From Candidatus Bathyarchaeota archaeon (GTDB lineage Archaea > Thermoproteota > Bathyarchaeia > Bathyarchaeales > Bathycorpusculaceae): a stretch of 64,000 nucleotides of DNA. The stretch is from NCBI GenBank assembly GCA_963777155.1, contig CAVZPM010000009.1, positions 32,001 through 96,000 on the forward strand. Reading direction: 5' to 3'. Positions 51,751-59,400 of the stretch are shown here, in pieces. Under the pieces are notes generated by a model that was given only the letters and a program-made list of their open reading frames with translations, did no database searches and was not told the DNA's origin. Every line of letters begins with the position of its first letter. Positions within the stretch are counted from its first letter, which is position 1. A program made the position numbers and the translations under genes.

Positions 51751-52506
51751 TTACTCGGTTTCGATTCTTGGCGCCAAGAAGAAAGTTAACTTTCCCTCTT
51801 TTGTCTGCTGGAAGTCTATTCTCACGGGCATGTCGGAGGAGAACTCGAGGGTTGCGATGTCTGAGGTTGCTGAAGCTGCTTTTATTATTTCGGAGAGGTA
51901 GCTTAAGCTGAATGTTGCCTTAGCTTTCTCTTTAACTTCCAAATCGAGCAGTGCGTCGTTGCCTTTCTGCAAAGTGATGGTTGCACCCATTAAGTCGCCT
52001 GAAGCGCTGAGCGTCAGTTTTTCTGGCTCCGCCTCAATCTTAACGTGGTCGCTTACGAGCTGAGCGTCTTCGATTGCTTGGCTTAACCCTTGGGTTGTGG
52101 TTTTAGCTTTAACGTTGAAGCTTATTTTTGGAGTGGGAACTTCTTCTTCGGAGGCTTCAAGTGTTGGCATCGTAAAGTTTCTGCTGTACTTGCCAGTTAT
52201 CGCTACTAGTAATCGTCCTGTTTTGTCGTCAAGGGCAAGTTCAACGGCTTCTTCTTTGCCTGCACGTTTGAGGAGTTTTAGAAGCTCGCTTATGTTGAGA
52301 CAGATTTTTGTTGGCTCGGTGCAGATGAATTCTTGGAAGATGGATTTTGGCCATTCAAAATCAATCATGGCGACGCGTGATGGGTCCATTGCGCGGAGTT
52401 TTAAGCCTTCAAGGTCGATTTTAAAAGTTGCTTCGTCAACTAGAATTGAGATGGCGGTTGCCATGTCTCTTAGGAGTTTTGCGTCAGACACTTTAAGCTT
52501 GAACAT
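51751..52506 (-). CDS. pcn: PCNA sliding clamp
   Basis: AMDPSRVAM, FSLSYL, DMP, FFLAPRIE. Confidence 0.98.
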   Translation of the reverse strand: MFKLKVSDAKLLRDMATAISILVDEATFKIDLEGLKLRAMDPSRVAMIDFEWPKSIFQEFICTEPTKICLNISELLKLLKRAGKEEAVELALDDKTGRLLVAITGKYSRNFTMPTLEASEEEVPTPKISFNVKAKTTTQGLSQAIEDAQLVSDHVKIEAEPEKLTLSASGDLMGATITLQKGNDALLDLEVKEKAKATFSLSYLSEIIKAASATSDIATLEFSSDMPVRIDFQQTKEGKLTFFLAPRIETE

Positions 52507-52627
52507 ATAACTCTTCCTCGTTCTAATGCATACAGGTCAGTTATATTAGTTTATCATTACACTCTTTGTTTATAAATTTGCCCTAATAAAACTTGCAAAC
52601 ATGTGCTTAAGCTGAAACAATTTTGCC

Positions 52628-52853
52628 TTACACTTCAGTTGGGTATCCGACATCGCGGGTAAATTCATAGTTTACGTAACCTTCTTGCTGGATTAAATGT
52701 TTACTACGGATCAGCTGCTGCGAATTCTTTCATGTTAACGAAACAACGGAGGCAATTTGGCAATACTTCGTACCCGCAATCGCAGGTCTTCTAGTTGCAA
52801 TAATCGTCATTGGCTTAGTATTAGCGCTATTGATAATGAAAAAACGAGCATAA
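52628..52853 (+). pseudogene. Frameshifted C-terminal remnant of a membrane-anchored surface protein
   Basis: Three frames join as LHFSWVSDIAGKFIVYVTF / AGLNVYYGSAAANSF / HVNETTEAIWQYFVPAIAGLLVAIIVIGLVLALLIMKKRA*. A T-rich terminator follows. Confidence 0.65.
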
Positions 52854-53177
52854 CTCAACCCCTATTTTCTTTTTTTGTTTATTATCAGTTTTCCAAAAAC
52901 TCAAGCAACAGACTCGAATGAAAAATATTTTTGTGTTTACGAAAACTCTTTGGGCTCCTTTAATTGTTTAAGCAGCTTTAGTAGTGTTTACTTGAGTCAA
53001 ACTAAGAAACAAGAAAGCGCTGTCTCTCAAACTGTTGGTTGATGTACTTAAGGAGGATTTGGTAATAACTTCTGTGGAAAAAACTTAGCCAACGCGTTAG
53101 AAGCTGCTGGTTTTTGCTTTAAAAGTCATAAAGTATAAGAATGCGTATGTTTCTTTTATGCAAAGCTGGTTGAAATC

Positions 53178-53453
53178 GTGAACGTTCCCAAAGAAGTAAA
53201 GACTTACTGTCCAAAATGTAAAGTTCATCAAATTCACAGTGTAACCCTCTACAAGGCAGGAAAACGTCGAGCATTGGCCAGAGGCGAAAGACACCACGAA
53301 CGCGAGAAGGAAGGTTACGGCGGACAGAAATATCCTCTGCAACATGAATTCGCTAAAACAACCAAAAAACAAACCTTGCGCCTAAAATGCAAAGTTTGCA
53401 ATTACATGCGTCACAAAGACGGCATCCGCCTAAGAAAATTAGCCATACAATAA
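53178..53453 (+). CDS. rpl44e: 50S ribosomal protein L44e
   Basis: TYCPKC..H..H, GYGGQ, AKTTKK...C..C. Confidence 0.97.
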   Translation: MNVPKEVKTYCPKCKVHQIHSVTLYKAGKRRALARGERHHEREKEGYGGQKYPLQHEFAKTTKKQTLRLKCKVCNYMRHKDGIRLRKLAIQ

Positions 53454-53475
53454 AATTAACGGAGTTTGAAAAAAT

Positions 53476-53673
53476 ATGTCTGACTGGAACAAACTTATTC
53501 CAAAACCAAGAAGCGTCTTCCTAAGGGTTAAATGCCAAAAATGCGGCAACGAACAACTCATCTTCAGCAACGCCGTCAATAAGATAGTCTGCAATGTATG
53601 CGGAGAAACCTTGGCTGAACCTTCGGGTGGAAGAGCAAAGATTAACGGTGACGTCCAAGCAGTTCTCGAGTAA
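53476..53673 (+). CDS. rps27e: 30S ribosomal protein S27e
   Basis: PRSVFLRVKCQKCGNEQLIFS...CNVCG..LAEPSGG. Confidence 0.97.
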   Translation: MSDWNKLIPKPRSVFLRVKCQKCGNEQLIFSNAVNKIVCNVCGETLAEPSGGRAKINGDVQAVLE

Positions 53674-53688
53674 GAGATGAATTCCCAA

Positions 53689-53745
53689 ATGGCTGAGCGT
53701 AAGCTAAAGCTGCGACGACTTGGCACTTTTAGAAGGGATAAATGA
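53689..53745 (+). pseudogene. eif2a: Probable internal-deletion remnant of aIF-2 alpha
   Basis: 18-codon ORF MAERKLKLRRLGTFRRDK* occupies exactly the aIF2-alpha slot between rps27e and nop10. Confidence 0.65.
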
Positions 53746-53916
53746 TTGGTTTGGCAACTGCGCAAATGCGTAAACTGCGAAAAATACACTTTGAATAAAA
53801 CTAGTTGCCCCTACTGTGGTGGAGCTGTGAGAATTCCACATCCGCCCAAATTTTCTCCAGACGACAAATACCTAAAGTACCGAATGGCTATGAAAAGGAG
53901 CGCTGAAACCCAATGA
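53746..53916 (+). CDS. nop10: H/ACA RNP protein Nop10
   Basis: TTG start: MVWQLRKCVNCEKYTLNKTSCPYCGGAVRIPHPPKFSPDDKYLKYR. Confidence 0.95.
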   Translation: MVWQLRKCVNCEKYTLNKTSCPYCGGAVRIPHPPKFSPDDKYLKYRMAMKRSAETQ

Positions 53917-54684
53917 AAGAAACCTACATCAAAGAATTTGTTGAAATCCAACCAAACAACCCCGTACTTATCGAAGGGTTACCCGGACTTAGGTCTTGTG
54001 GGAAAAATTGCTTTGCGATACCTAATCAAACAGCTAAAACCCAAAAAAATCGCTTATCTTTATTCACCGCACTTTCCATACTTCGTTTTGGTCAACAAGA
54101 AAGGAAACGTAAGACTTTTGCGAGGAGCATTCTACTACTATCAAAACCCCAAAGGAAACGACATAATTCTCTTCACAGGCGACAGCCAAAGTCAAACCAT
54201 AGAAGGACAATATGAAATTGCCGATCGCATGCTAGACTTCAGTGAAAAACACGGCGTTAAAACAATCGCTACCATCGGCGGCTACCGCATGGAATCCAAA
54301 GAAAAACCCAAAGTCTTCATAGCCGCCACCAGCCAAGACCTCTTACAGAAGGCAATCCAATCAGGCGCATCATTAAGTACATCAGGGAGTCCAATCGTGG
54401 GTACCGCAGGATTAATTCTTGGACTAGCTAAATTCAAGAAAATCGATGCTATTTGCCTGTTGGGTGAAACACGTGGTTATCTGCCTGATCCTTTGGCGGC
54501 TAAAAGCGTTTTGGAAGTGCTGAAGTCAACGTTTAACTTTGACTTGGACCTGGCTGGTTTGAACGAAGAGATAGCTAAAGCAGAAACGATGGTGACACGC
54601 CTACAGCAAATAGAGGAAAAACGAGCGGTGCAAGCTGAAGAAACCCGAAAGCAAGAAGACAAAAAAACAACCTACATTTCTTAA
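53913..54684 (+). pseudogene. PAC2 family proteasome-assembly chaperone with a +1 frameshift
   Basis: MKETYIKE...VLIEGLPGL in one frame continues as GLVGKIA...GDSQ...TIGGY...LLGET.GYLPDP.AA in another. There is one extra base in CCCGGACTTAGGT (~53988-53990). Confidence 0.85.
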
Positions 54685-54912
54685 ATAAAATCTTTCCTTA
54701 TCACTTCGACAGTTTTCGTTGCAGCTGTGCCATCCCCAATTGGAGACACAGAGGCATTTTTTTCTTTTCCTTGAGGGCTTGGTGCATGGCAGCTAAAATA
54801 TTGCTCTTTTCGGTTCCAACCAACTTGGGGCTCGGATAACAGGTGCCATCTTGATTATTTCAGGTCTGCTTCCTGTAACTACAACAACTGGTTTCAAACC
54901 CTGAATCAACGC

Positions 54913-56946
54913 CTAAGTCTTTTTTAGGCATCCTTCTCGAGGCTCATAAATCGTTCCTTCCCGCAGAAGCTGCCCGATCATGCGTTCAACTTCGCCTCTT
55001 GGAATCTTGTGTTTGGTTTCCAACTCGTTAACCAGGGCGTCTTTCTCCACGATACCCGTTACCTTCTCCATATCCATCAGTGTAGACAACACAATCGATA
55101 ATCTGTCGCGGATGCTCTTTGGTCGACCAGTCATGATTAGGTCAATGTCCACTTTGTAGCTGGACATGTCGATTCCAACTTCCTCCAATGACCGCTTCAT
55201 AATTGCAATGGCAGCGTCTGCATCTGCCGCCGTAACTTCCTTGCGCAACGCAACTCTTGCTCTAGCTTCTGCAACTCGAACCAAAGATTCCAGTTGACGC
55301 GCCGTAATTGCAACGGGTGAACCTTCGGTTTCGCTTGCGGAACGCATCGCTAAGTAAAAGTCGCTGAGGCGGTTTAATGCATCCATGCTAAGTTCTGGTT
55401 GGATGCTTTTGGCAAAACTGACATATTTGCGCAGAAGTTCAGCATCGACTTGTGCTTCAACGGGGCTTACTCCTCTTCTATGGATCTCCAGTATGTGCCG
55501 GGACATTTTGCTGTCGGATTCTTTGTTTGGTACGTCTCGGAGGACGAAGATTAGGTCGAAACGTGAGAGGATGGTTACTGGTAGGGATATGTTTTCTGCA
55601 ACGGTTCGGTTGGGTTCATACCTGCCCAACGATGGGTTCGCTGCGGCTAGGACCGCTGTTCTCGCGTTTAATGTGGCGACGATGCCTCCTTTTGCAACTG
55701 AAACAGTATGTTGCTCCATGGCTTCGTGTATGGCAACGCGGTCTTCGGGACGCATTTTATCCATTTCGTCGATGCATGCAATGCCCTTGTCTGCAAGCAC
55801 CAATGCACCTGCTTCAAGACTCATGCTTCCACCCTTCTCTCGAACAACTGCAGCGGTTAAACCTGCTGCTGTCGTGCCTCTGCCTGAAGTGTAGAGACCT
55901 CTTGGCGCTATTCTTGCAACATACTGCAATAGCTGTGATTTAGCGGTTCCTGGGTCACCAATGAGCAAAGCGTTCATCTCGCCTCTAACGTTCACGTCTG
56001 GTAGGCTTTTTGAAACACCACCAAAGAGCAAGTACATTATTGCTTCTTTGATATGCTCTAAACCAAAGATTGATGGCGCGATGGATGTCATGATTTTGCG
56101 ATGTACTTCCGGATCTTTGGATAATGCGACCATTTTCGCTTCTTCTTCAGGTGTGGGTGGCGAGGTTTCTGGTTCTTTACCTAAAACTTCTATGGAATTT
56201 GCGTCCAGTTGAAGAATGAAAGTGCGAAGCTTTCCCATGCCCATAAGTGAAGGTGCAAAAGCGCGTACTGTACCAACGATGGAAACATGATCTCCTGGCC
56301 TAGCTACATCGACTATTTCATCGCCTACAAGCTTCACCGCTAATACGCGCGGAAGCTGTCCGGGAGGTAAATCTTCAGGTTTTTCTTGCAACCTTAGGTC
56401 TTGTGAATCGATGAATGTAGATTCTTCTTGGCTGAACTCGAATGGTCCATCCCTACCACAGTCTGGAGCTACACAAACTGATGGCGCTTTCAAAAACTGC
56501 CCCGTTTGCTCGACTAGATTCATGGTGCCGCACCGTTTGCATTTGAAAGCTCCTAATTGAACCATCGGCCGCACAGGTGTTGCTCTCACAACGATACCTT
56601 CAATCATGACCAGTTTGCTCATTTGTCTTGAGCCAAGCTTCCGGAGCACCTCTTTACCCAGAAGCTTAACGATTCTTACAATGACCTTCTCTATTTTTTC
56701 CGCGTACTCCGCATCTTCGATACGAAGCTGTTCGTAAGCTCCTTTGCCTGCGTGTTGCAGATATTCTTCAGGTTTGTTGAGCAAAAGTTCCGAGAGAGCT
56801 TGATCGAACCCGTAGAGTTCCTCAAAATCAATTGTTAATGATCCTTTTCCTGTGATGGCTAACTGGGCAATTTTCTGGCGGTACTTTTCTTTCTTGAAGA
56901 ATTCTTGAAAACGCTGCTGAGGATCTATGGTTTCGAGTTTAGCCAT
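54913..56946 (-). CDS. mcm: MCM replicative helicase (no intein)
   Basis: Zn finger CKRC...CVAPDC, GDPGTAKSQ, IDEMDKM, EAMEQ, AAANP, ILSRFD, TARQLESL. Confidence 0.98.
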   Translation of the reverse strand: MAKLETIDPQQRFQEFFKKEKYRQKIAQLAITGKGSLTIDFEELYGFDQALSELLLNKPEEYLQHAGKGAYEQLRIEDAEYAEKIEKVIVRIVKLLGKEVLRKLGSRQMSKLVMIEGIVVRATPVRPMVQLGAFKCKRCGTMNLVEQTGQFLKAPSVCVAPDCGRDGPFEFSQEESTFIDSQDLRLQEKPEDLPPGQLPRVLAVKLVGDEIVDVARPGDHVSIVGTVRAFAPSLMGMGKLRTFILQLDANSIEVLGKEPETSPPTPEEEAKMVALSKDPEVHRKIMTSIAPSIFGLEHIKEAIMYLLFGGVSKSLPDVNVRGEMNALLIGDPGTAKSQLLQYVARIAPRGLYTSGRGTTAAGLTAAVVREKGGSMSLEAGALVLADKGIACIDEMDKMRPEDRVAIHEAMEQHTVSVAKGGIVATLNARTAVLAAANPSLGRYEPNRTVAENISLPVTILSRFDLIFVLRDVPNKESDSKMSRHILEIHRRGVSPVEAQVDAELLRKYVSFAKSIQPELSMDALNRLSDFYLAMRSASETEGSPVAITARQLESLVRVAEARARVALRKEVTAADADAAIAIMKRSLEEVGIDMSSYKVDIDLIMTGRPKSIRDRLSIVLSTLMDMEKVTGIVEKDALVNELETKHKIPRGEVERMIGQLLREGTIYEPREGCLKKT

Positions 56947-56948
56947 CT

Positions 56949-57521
56949 TTACTTTTCTCCAGCGTTTTCTAATATCGTGGTTTTCCATTCAGAGATGATT
57001 TTGACTAGTTGCTCGTAGACGAGGCGTTCTTCACTCGTGAATTTCTTTAGAACCTGGTCGCTCTGGGCTGGAGCGGCGGATATGGCAACTATTTTTTTTA
57101 ATCTTGAATTCACGATGTCGCGTGCTAACTGTTTTGCTCGGTCGTATTCTTGGTATTTCTCGGATTGTTTTTGCGATTGATCTCTTAAGTCAGCGATGAA
57201 CCTGCGTAGTTTAGGGTAGAAGTCTCCTGGCAGCTCTGAGATTTGCCCTGGAATTTGCACACCTTCCTTCCACTGTACCTTAAACAACTTCGTGGCATCA
57301 AGGGTTTCATCTTCCCGGAAATGTACAATTCCATTTACGGCGAGTTCTCTAGCTACCCAAAAATAAACTTCGTATTCGTTTCCTTCATCGAATGGACCAA
57401 CAGTGAGTCCTGCAAGCTTGATTTCTGGGCAGTTGCGGTTCGCTACGATTTTAACCATAGAGTTCTCGTAGCAGAAGTCCAATGTGCATATTTTCGACGC
57501 CACTCCCAGTTTCCCTCTCAA
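56949..57521 (-). CDS. gins23: GINS complex subunit GINS23
   Basis: B-domain first (GPF...YFWVARELA..G), then LPGDFY, RLKKI, TSEER. Directly upstream of mcm. Start uncertain. Confidence 0.85.
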   Translation of the reverse strand: MRGKLGVASKICTLDFCYENSMVKIVANRNCPEIKLAGLTVGPFDEGNEYEVYFWVARELAVNGIVHFREDETLDATKLFKVQWKEGVQIPGQISELPGDFYPKLRRFIADLRDQSQKQSEKYQEYDRAKQLARDIVNSRLKKIVAISAAPAQSDQVLKKFTSEERLVYEQLVKIISEWKTTILENAGEK

Positions 57522-58149
57522 TCTGTTTGCCTTTAACGGGATTCAACACATATGGCGAAAGGGGTTTTAAGGGTTTGCACTAGAGTTTTTTTACCGCTTA
57601 AGATTCAATATAAGGTGTTTTCGCTTGTAGTGGTTTTGTTTCTACTCGCAGAAGTTGATAAAGCCCTTCTTCTCGGCAGTTATCTTACAATAAACCCTAT
57701 TGTGGTGTGGCTGACCGTCTCGATTTGCCGATTTTTGTCAATATATTTTTTTAACAGTGTCTTTTCTCTCTTTGTGTGGGTGTGGGGCTATAAAATTGCA
57801 CACTACACTTGAGGCTTTGGAAAGGGGTACCTTTTTAGTTTGGGTTGTTTTCCTCTTTTGGTTTGAGTGTGGGGAGGGTGGATTGTTCCACTCAGTCATC
57901 ATGGGTTCCATGTTGAGTTGTGTGGATGTGAGTGTGGGAGTATGTTGGCGGTTCTATTCCTGTCTCGATGGACTTTTGTCGTGCAGTTCTGGTTTTTGAG
58001 TTTTTTAGAGATTGCTTTGGAATAATGGCCTGGTTGCTGATTTTATACTCTGAAGGATTCAAGCTTTTGATGCATTGCTGAAGAGTTTTAAAGTATGACT
58101 TGGGAGGTTTGCTGCAACCTGTACTCGACAATTAAAGAAATAAATCAGG

Positions 58150-59400
58150 TTATGGCCAAAGTCCCAGTGTTTTAATGGCGTTTGCTACTCTGCCAACTCC
58201 CAGCATCAGCGCACCTGTGCGCATATCACTATCTTCTTTTACAACAATCGCTTCTACATCATTGAATGCTTTAGTCATCTTCGCTTCAAGCTTAGTGTTG
58301 ACTGTTTCCAGCGGCCACTGCTCCCGAGTCAAATTCTGCACCCACTCAAAATAGCTCACGGTAACGCCGCCACTATTGGCAAGAATGTCTGGGATAAGGC
58401 AGATTTCTTTTTCGTAGAGGATTATGTCGGCTTCAGGCGTGGTCGGTCCGTTTGCGGCTTCTGCAACCACTTTTGCCTTGATTTTGTCAGCGTTTTTTTG
58501 GGTGATTTGGTTTTCTAAGGCTGCAGGAATAAGCACGTCGCATGGCAGTTCGAGGAGTTCTTGGTTAGTTATGTTCTTGCAACCCTTGTAGTTTTGCACT
58601 GTTTTGGTTTTTTCTTTGTGTGCCAAAACAGCCTCAGGGTTTAAGCCATCGGGGCAGTAGATCCCACCCGACGAGTCGCTAACAGCTATCACTTTGCATC
58701 CAATTTCCCTTGCCGCTGTTGCAGCGTGGTAACCGACGTTGCCAAAGCCCTGGATCACTACGGAGGCATTCTTTAGTTTTAAACAGTTGTTTTTGGATGC
58801 TTGCTTAACGCAATGGATGACACCTCGCCCTGTGGCTTCCGTTCTTCCCCATGAACCACCAATCTCGACCGGTTTGCCAGTGGCGCTTTCGGGTATTCTG
58901 TAGCCTTTGAGTTGGCTGTAGGTATCCATTATCCATGCCATGGTTTGGGCGTCAGTGTACATGTCGGGCGCTGGGATGTCCATGTGCGGACCAAGGTACT
59001 CTGAGATTAAGCTTACATACCGTCTTGTTAAGCGTTCCAGCTCGTGTTTGCTGAGTTTTTTACTGTCCACACAAACCCCGCCTTTTGCCCCGCCGAATGG
59101 AATATCCGCGATGGCGCACTTCCAAGTCATTAACATAGCTAACGCAGTAACTTCGTCAAGCGTGATGTTTGGATAGAAGCGGATTCCTCCCTTGAAGGGT
59201 CCACGTGCATCCCAATGCTGCACACGAATACCGTTGAAAACACCCACTGAGCCATTGTCCATCCGGATGTCTATGCTTACTGAGATGGAGCGTTTGGGAT
59301 AACTGAGCATTTTTTGCATTCCATGATCAAGCTCGAGCTTTTTGGATGCAAGTTTAAGTTGGGTTAGGGCAACGCTAAGTGCTGTATGTTCTTCCGCCAT
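58150..59400 (-). CDS. gdhA: Glutamate dehydrogenase
   Basis: RGPFKGGIR, MTWKCA, PFGGAKGG, DIPAPD, QGFGNVG, EAANGP, NSGGVTVSYFEWVQN. Confidence 0.96.
   Translation of the reverse strand: MAEEHTALSVALTQLKLASKKLELDHGMQKMLSYPKRSISVSIDIRMDNGSVGVFNGIRVQHWDARGPFKGGIRFYPNITLDEVTALAMLMTWKCAIADIPFGGAKGGVCVDSKKLSKHELERLTRRYVSLISEYLGPHMDIPAPDMYTDAQTMAWIMDTYSQLKGYRIPESATGKPVEIGGSWGRTEATGRGVIHCVKQASKNNCLKLKNASVVIQGFGNVGYHAATAAREIGCKVIAVSDSSGGIYCPDGLNPEAVLAHKEKTKTVQNYKGCKNITNQELLELPCDVLIPAALENQITQKNADKIKAKVVAEAANGPTTPEADIILYEKEICLIPDILANSGGVTVSYFEWVQNLTREQWPLETVNTKLEAKMTKAFNDVEAIVVKEDSDMRTGALMLGVGRVANAIKTLGLWP

Follow-up and report, generated by a model that had tools for sequence, protein, structure and literature searches.

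The aIF2α gene is missing from its conserved place in an archaeal operon within the window (the whole 64-kb stretch of DNA analysed here), and the 72-bp spacer found in its stead is, by the homology of both its ends, a start-plus-end remnant of the operon-type gene. The most probable explanation, to which we assign a probability of about 0.8, is paralog displacement, in which the operon aIF2α was deleted stepwise after an older duplicate at a second locus took over. Judging by the paralogous gene recovered on contig C38 of the same genome, the factor itself is not lost. According to this explanation, aIF2α would have been duplicated in the ancestor of this Bathyarchaeia genus. One copy would have remained in the block rpl44e-rps27e-aIF2α-nop10-PAC2 and the other would have settled at a second locus (C38 in the genome under study), usually followed by a 124-aa ORF. 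Both copies would still be retained in many species. In the lineage of the window, the second-locus copy presumably took over as the working gene, while successive internal deletions would have removed the operon copy and spared its leader, start, first few codons, last few codons and stop. These surviving ends would also serve nop10, with a AGAAGGGA motif 5' of its TTG and a stop codon abutting its start, and the remnant may act as a short translated leader ORF which hands ribosomes to nop10 by termination-reinitiation. Such a history amounts to a textbook-like paralog displacement with pseudogene decay, not to a loss of aIF2 and not to a new kind of system. It is unusual in that a core initiation-factor subunit in a highly conserved archaeal block is concerned, and in that the decay series is unusually complete.

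The features of the locus are compiled in Table 1. The sequence-only reading had described a gap of 72 bp between rps27e and nop10 that encodes MAERKLKLRRLGTFRRDK and whose stop abuts the nop10 TTG. This description was accurate in every detail: the spacer is bounded by the rps27e TAA and by the TTG at 53746, and the mini-ORF runs from the ATG at 53689 to the directly abutting TGA at 53743-53745. A second in-frame ATG at 53677, upstream of 53689, would add the residues MNSQ (MNSQMAERK...). A Pfam search of the flanking ORFs and the scar ORF assigned no family to the 22-aa scar ORF, and an Rfam scan of 52500-58500 gave no match in or near the scar. The nop10 start codon was TTG in 47, GTG in 10 and ATG in 4 of 61 genomes of the genus, and ATG in 10/10 outgroups; the position of the start is supported by the fact that this variation falls on one and the same codon.

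Table 1 Features of the aIF2α remnant and of the surrounding operon (positions refer to the window)
Feature	Coordinates	Strand	Basis and remarks
rpl44e	53178..53453	+	Pfam Ribosomal_L44, 6.9e-26; first gene of the conserved block; same place in all complete relatives' loci
rps27e	53476..53673	+	Pfam Ribosomal_S27e, 1.4e-20; stop TAA (53671-53673) immediately before the scar
Whole 72-bp spacer, operon aIF2α remnant	53674..53745	+	Spacer length compared with the genus; aligns within the nested deletion series of its own clade
5' remnant: old leader with AAGAGATGA motif, ATG 53689 and first 5-6 codons (MAERK)	53674..53705	+	Start identity
Mini-ORF MAERKLKLRRLGTFRRDK	53689..53745	+	Old aIF2α frame at both ends; same open layout in 23/28 scar genomes
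3' remnant: last aIF2α codons (..GTFRRDK-stop) with AGAAGGGA motif	53719..53745	+	Junction conservation
nop10	53746..53916	+	Pfam Nop10p, 2e-23, aligned from residue 1; TTG start right after the scar TGA
PAC2 (proteasome assembly chaperone family)	53913..54684	+	Pfam PAC2, 1.5e-44 on the second frame; frame 1, 53913-54215; frame 2, 53938-54684

Three further observations concern the surroundings of the operon. Between PCNA and rpl44e, a C/D-box sRNA-like match lies at 52704-52779 on the minus strand (Rfam SNORD34, E 0.0026; with 32.4 bits it stays under the gathering score of 38). A G/T-rich element of ~180 nt without an Rfam match is located at ~57765-57945 of the window. It occurs in 6 copies in the genome (76-82% identity), one of them at C38:49979-50151, ~2.4 kb from the second-locus aIF2α, and in many copies in sister genomes. 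The closest relative, G056 (C22, L064/L065), carries ~2.6 kb more DNA between the PCNA and PAC2 orthologues than the window.

Both ends of the mini-ORF were compared with the operon genes of related genomes. In the genus, the 32 intact operon genes start with MAERKP(E/Q)WPE.GDLVIATIE.VTDYGAY and end with GG.G(T/S)FRREK-stop. The first 17 nt of the window ORF were identical at 13-16 of 17 positions to the starts of the 33 gene-length operon copies, with 16/17 reached in 15 of them. The last 27 nt shared 19-23 of 27 positions with the gene-length copies where the register is right, GTFRRDK-stop corresponding to GG.G(T/S)FRREK-stop. The sequence-only reading had likened MAERK and GTFRRxK to the two ends of aIF2α, and the genus operon genes, which start MAERKP and end GTFRREK-stop, bear this out, as does the alignment to the relatives' genes. 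The genes at the second locus differ at their ends (start MSEHKP, finish GSFKREK-stop), and the scar resembles the operon type. The leader motif AAGAGATGA of the window is represented by AAGGGATGA in the sister clade. Remnant peptides of comparable build were read from other genomes, namely MAGRKLDWPEAGDLALLRRDH in G053, MAERKREWPEAGDLVIATIDAVTDFGAYAKMGGEGAFRRDK in G072 and MAERKPQWPEAGDLVIATIDTVTDYGAYAKLDEYEKRGLLHVSEISSSWIRNIRDFVRAGQNVVACIAKAGGRGSFRREK in G047, beside MAERKLKLRRLGTFRRDK in the genome under study. Homology at the 5' end and at the 3' end is thus joined by an orthologous site and by intermediate forms in relatives.

The operon site was surveyed with a profile search for Nop10p (PF04135) in 31 genomes, comprising the genome under study, 18 of the same genus and 12 of other families of the order. 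A match was obtained in 30 of the 31, the single miss being a genome of 76% completeness. In tblastn searches with the window proteins and the genome's own aIF2α, the order L44e-S27e-aIF2α-Nop10-PAC2, which had been postulated beforehand as conserved in archaea, was present in 10/10 complete outgroup loci. In an eleventh outgroup locus, cut by a contig end, aIF2α-Nop10-PAC2 was still present. The census was then widened to 61 genomes of the genus, all of which contained nop10 (61/61), and the spacer length was taken as the distance between the last rps27e codon and the nop10 start. A short spacer of 62-302 nt occurred in 28/61, including the window (75 nt including the S27e stop), and a gene-length spacer of 798-815 nt (~800 bp) in 33/61. 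Taken over these 33 and the 10/10 complete outgroup loci, the spacer that holds aIF2α spans 798-876 bp. In the 28 genomes, aIF2α is absent as the middle gene. One of the 33 gene-length genomes, G065, has an operon aIF2α of full length with three frame changes; its neighbouring PAC2 is frame-split too, and decay and assembly error are for this reason indistinguishable at its operon copy.

The way in which the gene shrank can be followed in the relatives. The remnants range from ~60 codons of the N-terminus with 20 of the C-terminus to as few as ~6 with 7, and intermediate spacers of 84, 123, 144, 181-184, 234-235, 261 and 302 bp occur in sister species. A quick IQ-TREE analysis of the four flanking proteins, although weakly resolved, placed the window within a clade of 14 genomes which all carry scars. 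The aligned spacers of this clade are nested and imply the steps 144 to 123 (-21), 144 to 84 (-60) and 84 to 75 (-9). A second clade of 19 genomes contains 14 scars of eight other junction types together with 5 intact genes, and on the tree the gene must have switched at least four times between an intact and a shortened or broken state. The net loss at the operon site is ~0.73 kb. The sharing of the shortened state by 28/61 genomes, the nested series and the intermediates indicate that this loss is real, old, shared and stepwise. An internal deletion of roughly 0.75 kb that kept both operon junctions had been proposed from the window alone; its size and the retention of both junctions were correct, but it came about in several nested steps and not in one event.

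A search of the whole assembly for the EIF_2_alpha domain (PF07541) gave matches on contig C38 alone, in two frames. The gene found there starts with MSEHKPEWPESGDLVIATIESVMDYGAY and finishes with GGNGSFKREK-stop. It was predicted that an intact copy elsewhere would turn the apparent loss of aIF2α into a relocation; a paralogous copy is indeed present and a loss of the factor is not supported, the relocation having come about by duplication and loss of the operon copy. The paralogous copy is frame-broken in this assembly, as discussed below. The S1 domain lies on the 155-aa part of the C38 product, and the EIF_2_alpha domain scored 74 bits, above the cut-off, across the frame break. An intact protein of a close relative, P0004 (262 aa, found on 18 contigs), has both the S1 and the EIF_2_alpha domain, and its residues 6-260 align with the solved archaeal aIF2α structures 1yz6 and 3aev. 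The remaining subunits, whose presence the sequence-only reading had wished to see checked, were both found: aIF2β on C8 (139-aa frame) and aIF2γ on C9 (430-aa frame).

When the first 155 residues of the C38 product were searched against the 61 genus genomes, many of these gave two full-length matches, with identities of 68-76% for the one in the operon and of 74-96% for the one outside it. Second-locus copies were present in 44/61 genomes. The operon copy alone was found in 14 genomes, both copies intact in 18, a second copy together with the frame-broken operon copy in 1 (G065), a scar with a second copy in 25, and a scar for which a second copy was not found in 3, which are 52%, 58% and 65% complete. 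In 25 of the 28 scar genomes, the second-locus copy is therefore the only one found. Each of 75 other genomes sampled from the order had one copy, the gene being split over contig ends in two of them. In 5/5 checked genomes with both alpha copies, aIF2γ was single-copy.

An aIF2α tree was calculated from 86 proteins (44 second-locus, 32 genus operon and 10 outgroup), omitting the frame-broken operon copy of G065 and entering the genome under study as its 155-aa part. The genus formed one clade (SH-aLRT 100), within which the second-locus copies (99) and the genus operon copies (86) were each united. The stem of the second-locus clade was 0.29 long, compared with 0.07 for the operon clade, and the internal groupings of both subtrees were broadly alike by eye. 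This clade structure and the similar subtrees fit a single duplication no later than the base of the sampled genus, after which the copies were lost differentially. The second-locus tips were short where this copy is the sole one and long (0.11-0.28) in an 11-genome clade which retains both.

Several observations were made alongside this analysis. In G103, a genome of the neighbouring genus g17 of the same family, the only aIF2α match (C69:2269-3054) is of the second type, with 84% identity to P0004, and the duplication may consequently predate the genus as currently delimited. G056 has two near-identical second-locus aIF2α copies on different contigs, at an estimated contamination of 6%. An ORF of 124 aa (G000:C38:46369-46743, minus strand; L001:1010-1384) begins ~15 nt past the second-locus aIF2α stop and is found at the same place in 47/80 related loci; from this recurrence it is regarded as a conserved partner gene of the second-locus aIF2α. 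Pfam searches assigned no family to this ORF, to the 229-aa and 87-aa ORFs beside the C38 gene or to the 130-aa ORF upstream. The records of the relatives are Bathyarchaeota/Bathyarchaeia MAGs whose sources are peat, fen, soil and sediment.

The 3' end of the remnant is at the same time the upstream region of nop10. The sequence TTT(T/C)AGAAGGGA.AAATA(A/G) upstream of the nop10 start is kept in full and scar genomes alike, and 7/10 outgroups read AAAAGGGA(A/G)AA(A/G)T(A/G)ATG at this junction. The junction sequence doubles as the last aIF2α codons (F-R-R-E-K-stop) and was spared by every deletion. The AGAAGGGA motif, 8-15 nt 5' of the nop10 start, is probably the ribosome-binding site of this gene. 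To judge it as a Shine-Dalgarno site, the 16S 3' end GGATCACCTCC was searched in the genome and gave no match, so that its ribosome-binding role is one which we infer. Throughout the 61 genus genomes the nop10 start lies 0-2 nt from the upstream stop or overlaps it, with TAATG and TAGTG overlaps occurring in relatives.

In 23 of the 28 scars the frame is open as far as a stop at the start of nop10, beginning with a start codon that coincides with the old one or lies slightly 5' of it, and this suggests translational coupling; the old ATG itself is kept in 26/28. The odds are roughly even that the stub has been kept as a translated leader ORF which couples nop10 via termination-reinitiation. 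This mechanism, known from archaea and bacteria, is described for archaeal genes whose start codon overlaps or directly follows the stop codon of the gene before (Huber et al. 2019, PMC6728339; PMC10666635), and the same stop-start abutment, at a distance of 0 nt, exists here. Compared with these coupled pairs, the upstream ORF in the window is a pseudogene stub without a product of its own, and the coupling is deduced from the retention of the frame.

Alternatively, the scar would be a neutral pseudogene stub whose frame is open by chance, with nop10 initiating independently from its own motif, and the chances of this reading fall slightly short of even. Its interior is highly variable, and a frame of 18 codons stays open by chance fairly often. 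Out-of-frame scars, 5 of the 28, argue in the same direction and against coupling. In the closest relative G056, ATA in place of ATG and a loss of 2 nt have abolished start and frame without visible harm. The mini-ORF stops 13 nt early at a TAG in G004, G031 and G043, and it runs on into nop10 in G060. Against neutrality, 9 of ~11 scars counted by junction type are in frame where 1/3 would be expected, with a hand-computed binomial of ~0.001 that is uncorrected for shared ancestry and overstates the evidence because the junction types share it. The three later deletions within the window's own clade (-21, -60, -9) are all multiples of three, and the start codon has largely been kept. The weak codon TTG as nop10 start in most of the genus, always close to an upstream stop, speaks against neutrality as well. 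A more far-reaching proposal, according to which the stub was co-opted as a mini-ORF feeding nop10, under selection for its start, frame and stop, and two aIF2α isoforms share one gamma subunit, is somewhat doubtful and is put forward tentatively.

Paralog displacement presupposes a functional gene at the second locus, and the state of the C38 copy in this assembly therefore deserves attention. Relative to G056, G002 and G010, the C38 gene is one base longer at L001:~1735-1739, where the sequence ..TTAAC(T)AAA(G)CTC.. leaves it ambiguous which base was inserted. The break yields a 155-aa product ending LTKAQYP-stop, and the other 110 codons lie in the +1 frame. A similar lesion is found beside the scar, where PAC2 has one extra base at ~53980-53990; there, E-G-L-P-G-L-G-L-V-G-K is encoded without a frame change in 10/10 other aligned genus loci, and the PAC2 base is probably an assembly indel. 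The frequency of such splits was estimated by searching ORFs from 480 kb of a contig of the closest relative against the genome. At 70% identity or more, 261 sampled ORFs matched, 213 of them in one frame at >90% coverage and 34 split over frames. After 8 of these 34 had been set aside as paralog or antisense artefacts, 26/253, or ~10% of the sampled genes, were frame-split. They contain 29 junctions, several genes being split twice and many lying on C38. Outside the window, frame-split genes occurred on C1, C9 beyond the window, C11, C25, C27, C36, C37 and C38. No clear common sequence motif was seen at the 29 junctions, which comprise homopolymers and other contexts. Given this proportion of split genes, indel error is the likeliest cause of the extra bases in the C38 gene and PAC2, and for the C38 frame break a sequencing or assembly error is considered likely.

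Further comparisons are in line with an error. Of the second-locus copies, 43/44 are in one frame, and 11/11 aligned close relatives read the break site in one frame. The 90%-identity cluster of the 155-aa product contains variants truncated at five other sites on long contigs as well as the intact 262-aa form. A Logan contig of run X2, from a related strain, is without the extra C38 base. The records of many relatives have names beginning with MFD, and Microflora Danica MAGs are described as long-read Nanopore assemblies (PMC12313526). Against an error, the sole aIF2α gene found in this genome is not one uninterrupted frame of ~262 codons, and public runs contained at most 0.34 of the words of the C38 locus. 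The indel load is also uneven: of the 73 ORF queries from the 64-kb window that gave matches, a single one was a genuine split (PAC2; a second split match was an antisense ORF across the scar), compared with ~10% outside.

If the C38 copy were truly frameshifted, the genome would have undergone a real loss of function, leaving a 155-aa S1 fragment and an initiation that relies on beta and gamma alone. The frame break does stand in the assembly, and its 155-aa product, P0001, has an S1 domain and no other. The product P0008 of another strain, in a Logan contig, is also 155 aa long and breaks within the same ~10 nt as the C38 gene, which fits a systematic error as well as a real recurrent lesion. 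A Logan contig of X4 (412 nt, 98.8% identity) spans the site with one unlisted 1-nt gap and was not scored as being without the extra base. Real inactivation is conceivable in view of Haloferax volcanii, whose aIF2α deletion mutant is reported to be viable (PMC8576121). Nevertheless, a real loss is improbable: about one in ten sampled genes of the assembly is frame-split, several of them twice, the truncated cluster variants look like assembly noise, nearly all second-locus copies are intact and sit on very short tips where no other copy accompanies them, and the X2 contig is without the extra base.

A programmed +1 ribosomal frameshift could in principle restore the full-length protein from the C38 gene. 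CCC-UGA is a known shift-prone context, and the zero frame of the C38 gene ends with CCC TGA C (Pro, slip, GAC), the +1 frame going on with DDLVKV... in register with the relatives. The shift site is not conserved, however, the relatives read this region in one frame and no conserved stimulator was seen; moreover, CCC TGA arises automatically whenever a +1 insertion further upstream displaces the frame of the conserved ATC CCT GA(C/A), which makes such recoding very unlikely. The weakest proposal, that a collapsed or chimeric join dropped aIF2α in this MAG only, was the main alternative of the sequence-only reading and has practically nothing left in its favour beyond the errors which the assembly does contain, since the shortened spacer occurs in 28/61 species-level genomes from many studies, some with ~5-10 large contigs, and the junction sequences follow the flanking-gene phylogeny.

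The alpha subunit of archaeal translation initiation factor 2 (aIF2α / eIF2α) has an S1 and an EIF_2_alpha domain (solved structures 1yz6, 3aev, 2aho). In the scar, the operon-type gene is represented by its first and last codons, and P0004 and the C38 gene share the domains and an end-to-end alignment with solved aIF2α. In contrast to a regular aIF2α locus, the window holds 18 codons only, and the presumed working copy is a lineage-specific paralog elsewhere, with a long stem and a broken frame in this assembly. In comparison with the block rpl44e-rps27e-aIF2α-nop10, the genes that remain have the same order and orientation, PAC2 following, and the middle gene is missing. In H. volcanii, two aIF2β paralogs are reported to exist and alpha to be dispensable (PMC8576121), so that paralogous aIF2 subunits would likewise serve one gamma. 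Here, alpha is the duplicated subunit, and one lineage deleted the ancestral copy. Among the papers listed by a literature search, none concerned an aIF2α duplication in Bathyarchaeia, which is not proof of its absence.

The lineage-specific paralog resolves the apparent anomaly of a near-universal initiation factor missing from its operon. For annotation, the case is a warning: marker-gene or synteny checks would call aIF2α absent, and indel-rich MAGs can make the surviving copy look broken. It documents the stepwise displacement and whittling of a core translation gene during which the signals of its neighbour were spared. The genus represents a natural series, from the operon copy only (14 genomes) over both copies intact (18, and G065) to the second copy with a scar (28, including the three in which the second copy was not found). 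This series can be used to ask which role the second aIF2α has and whether remnant ORFs are kept for translational coupling. If one gamma subunit did serve both isoforms, two functionally distinct aIF2 heterotrimers would have existed until one lineage settled on the newer isoform.
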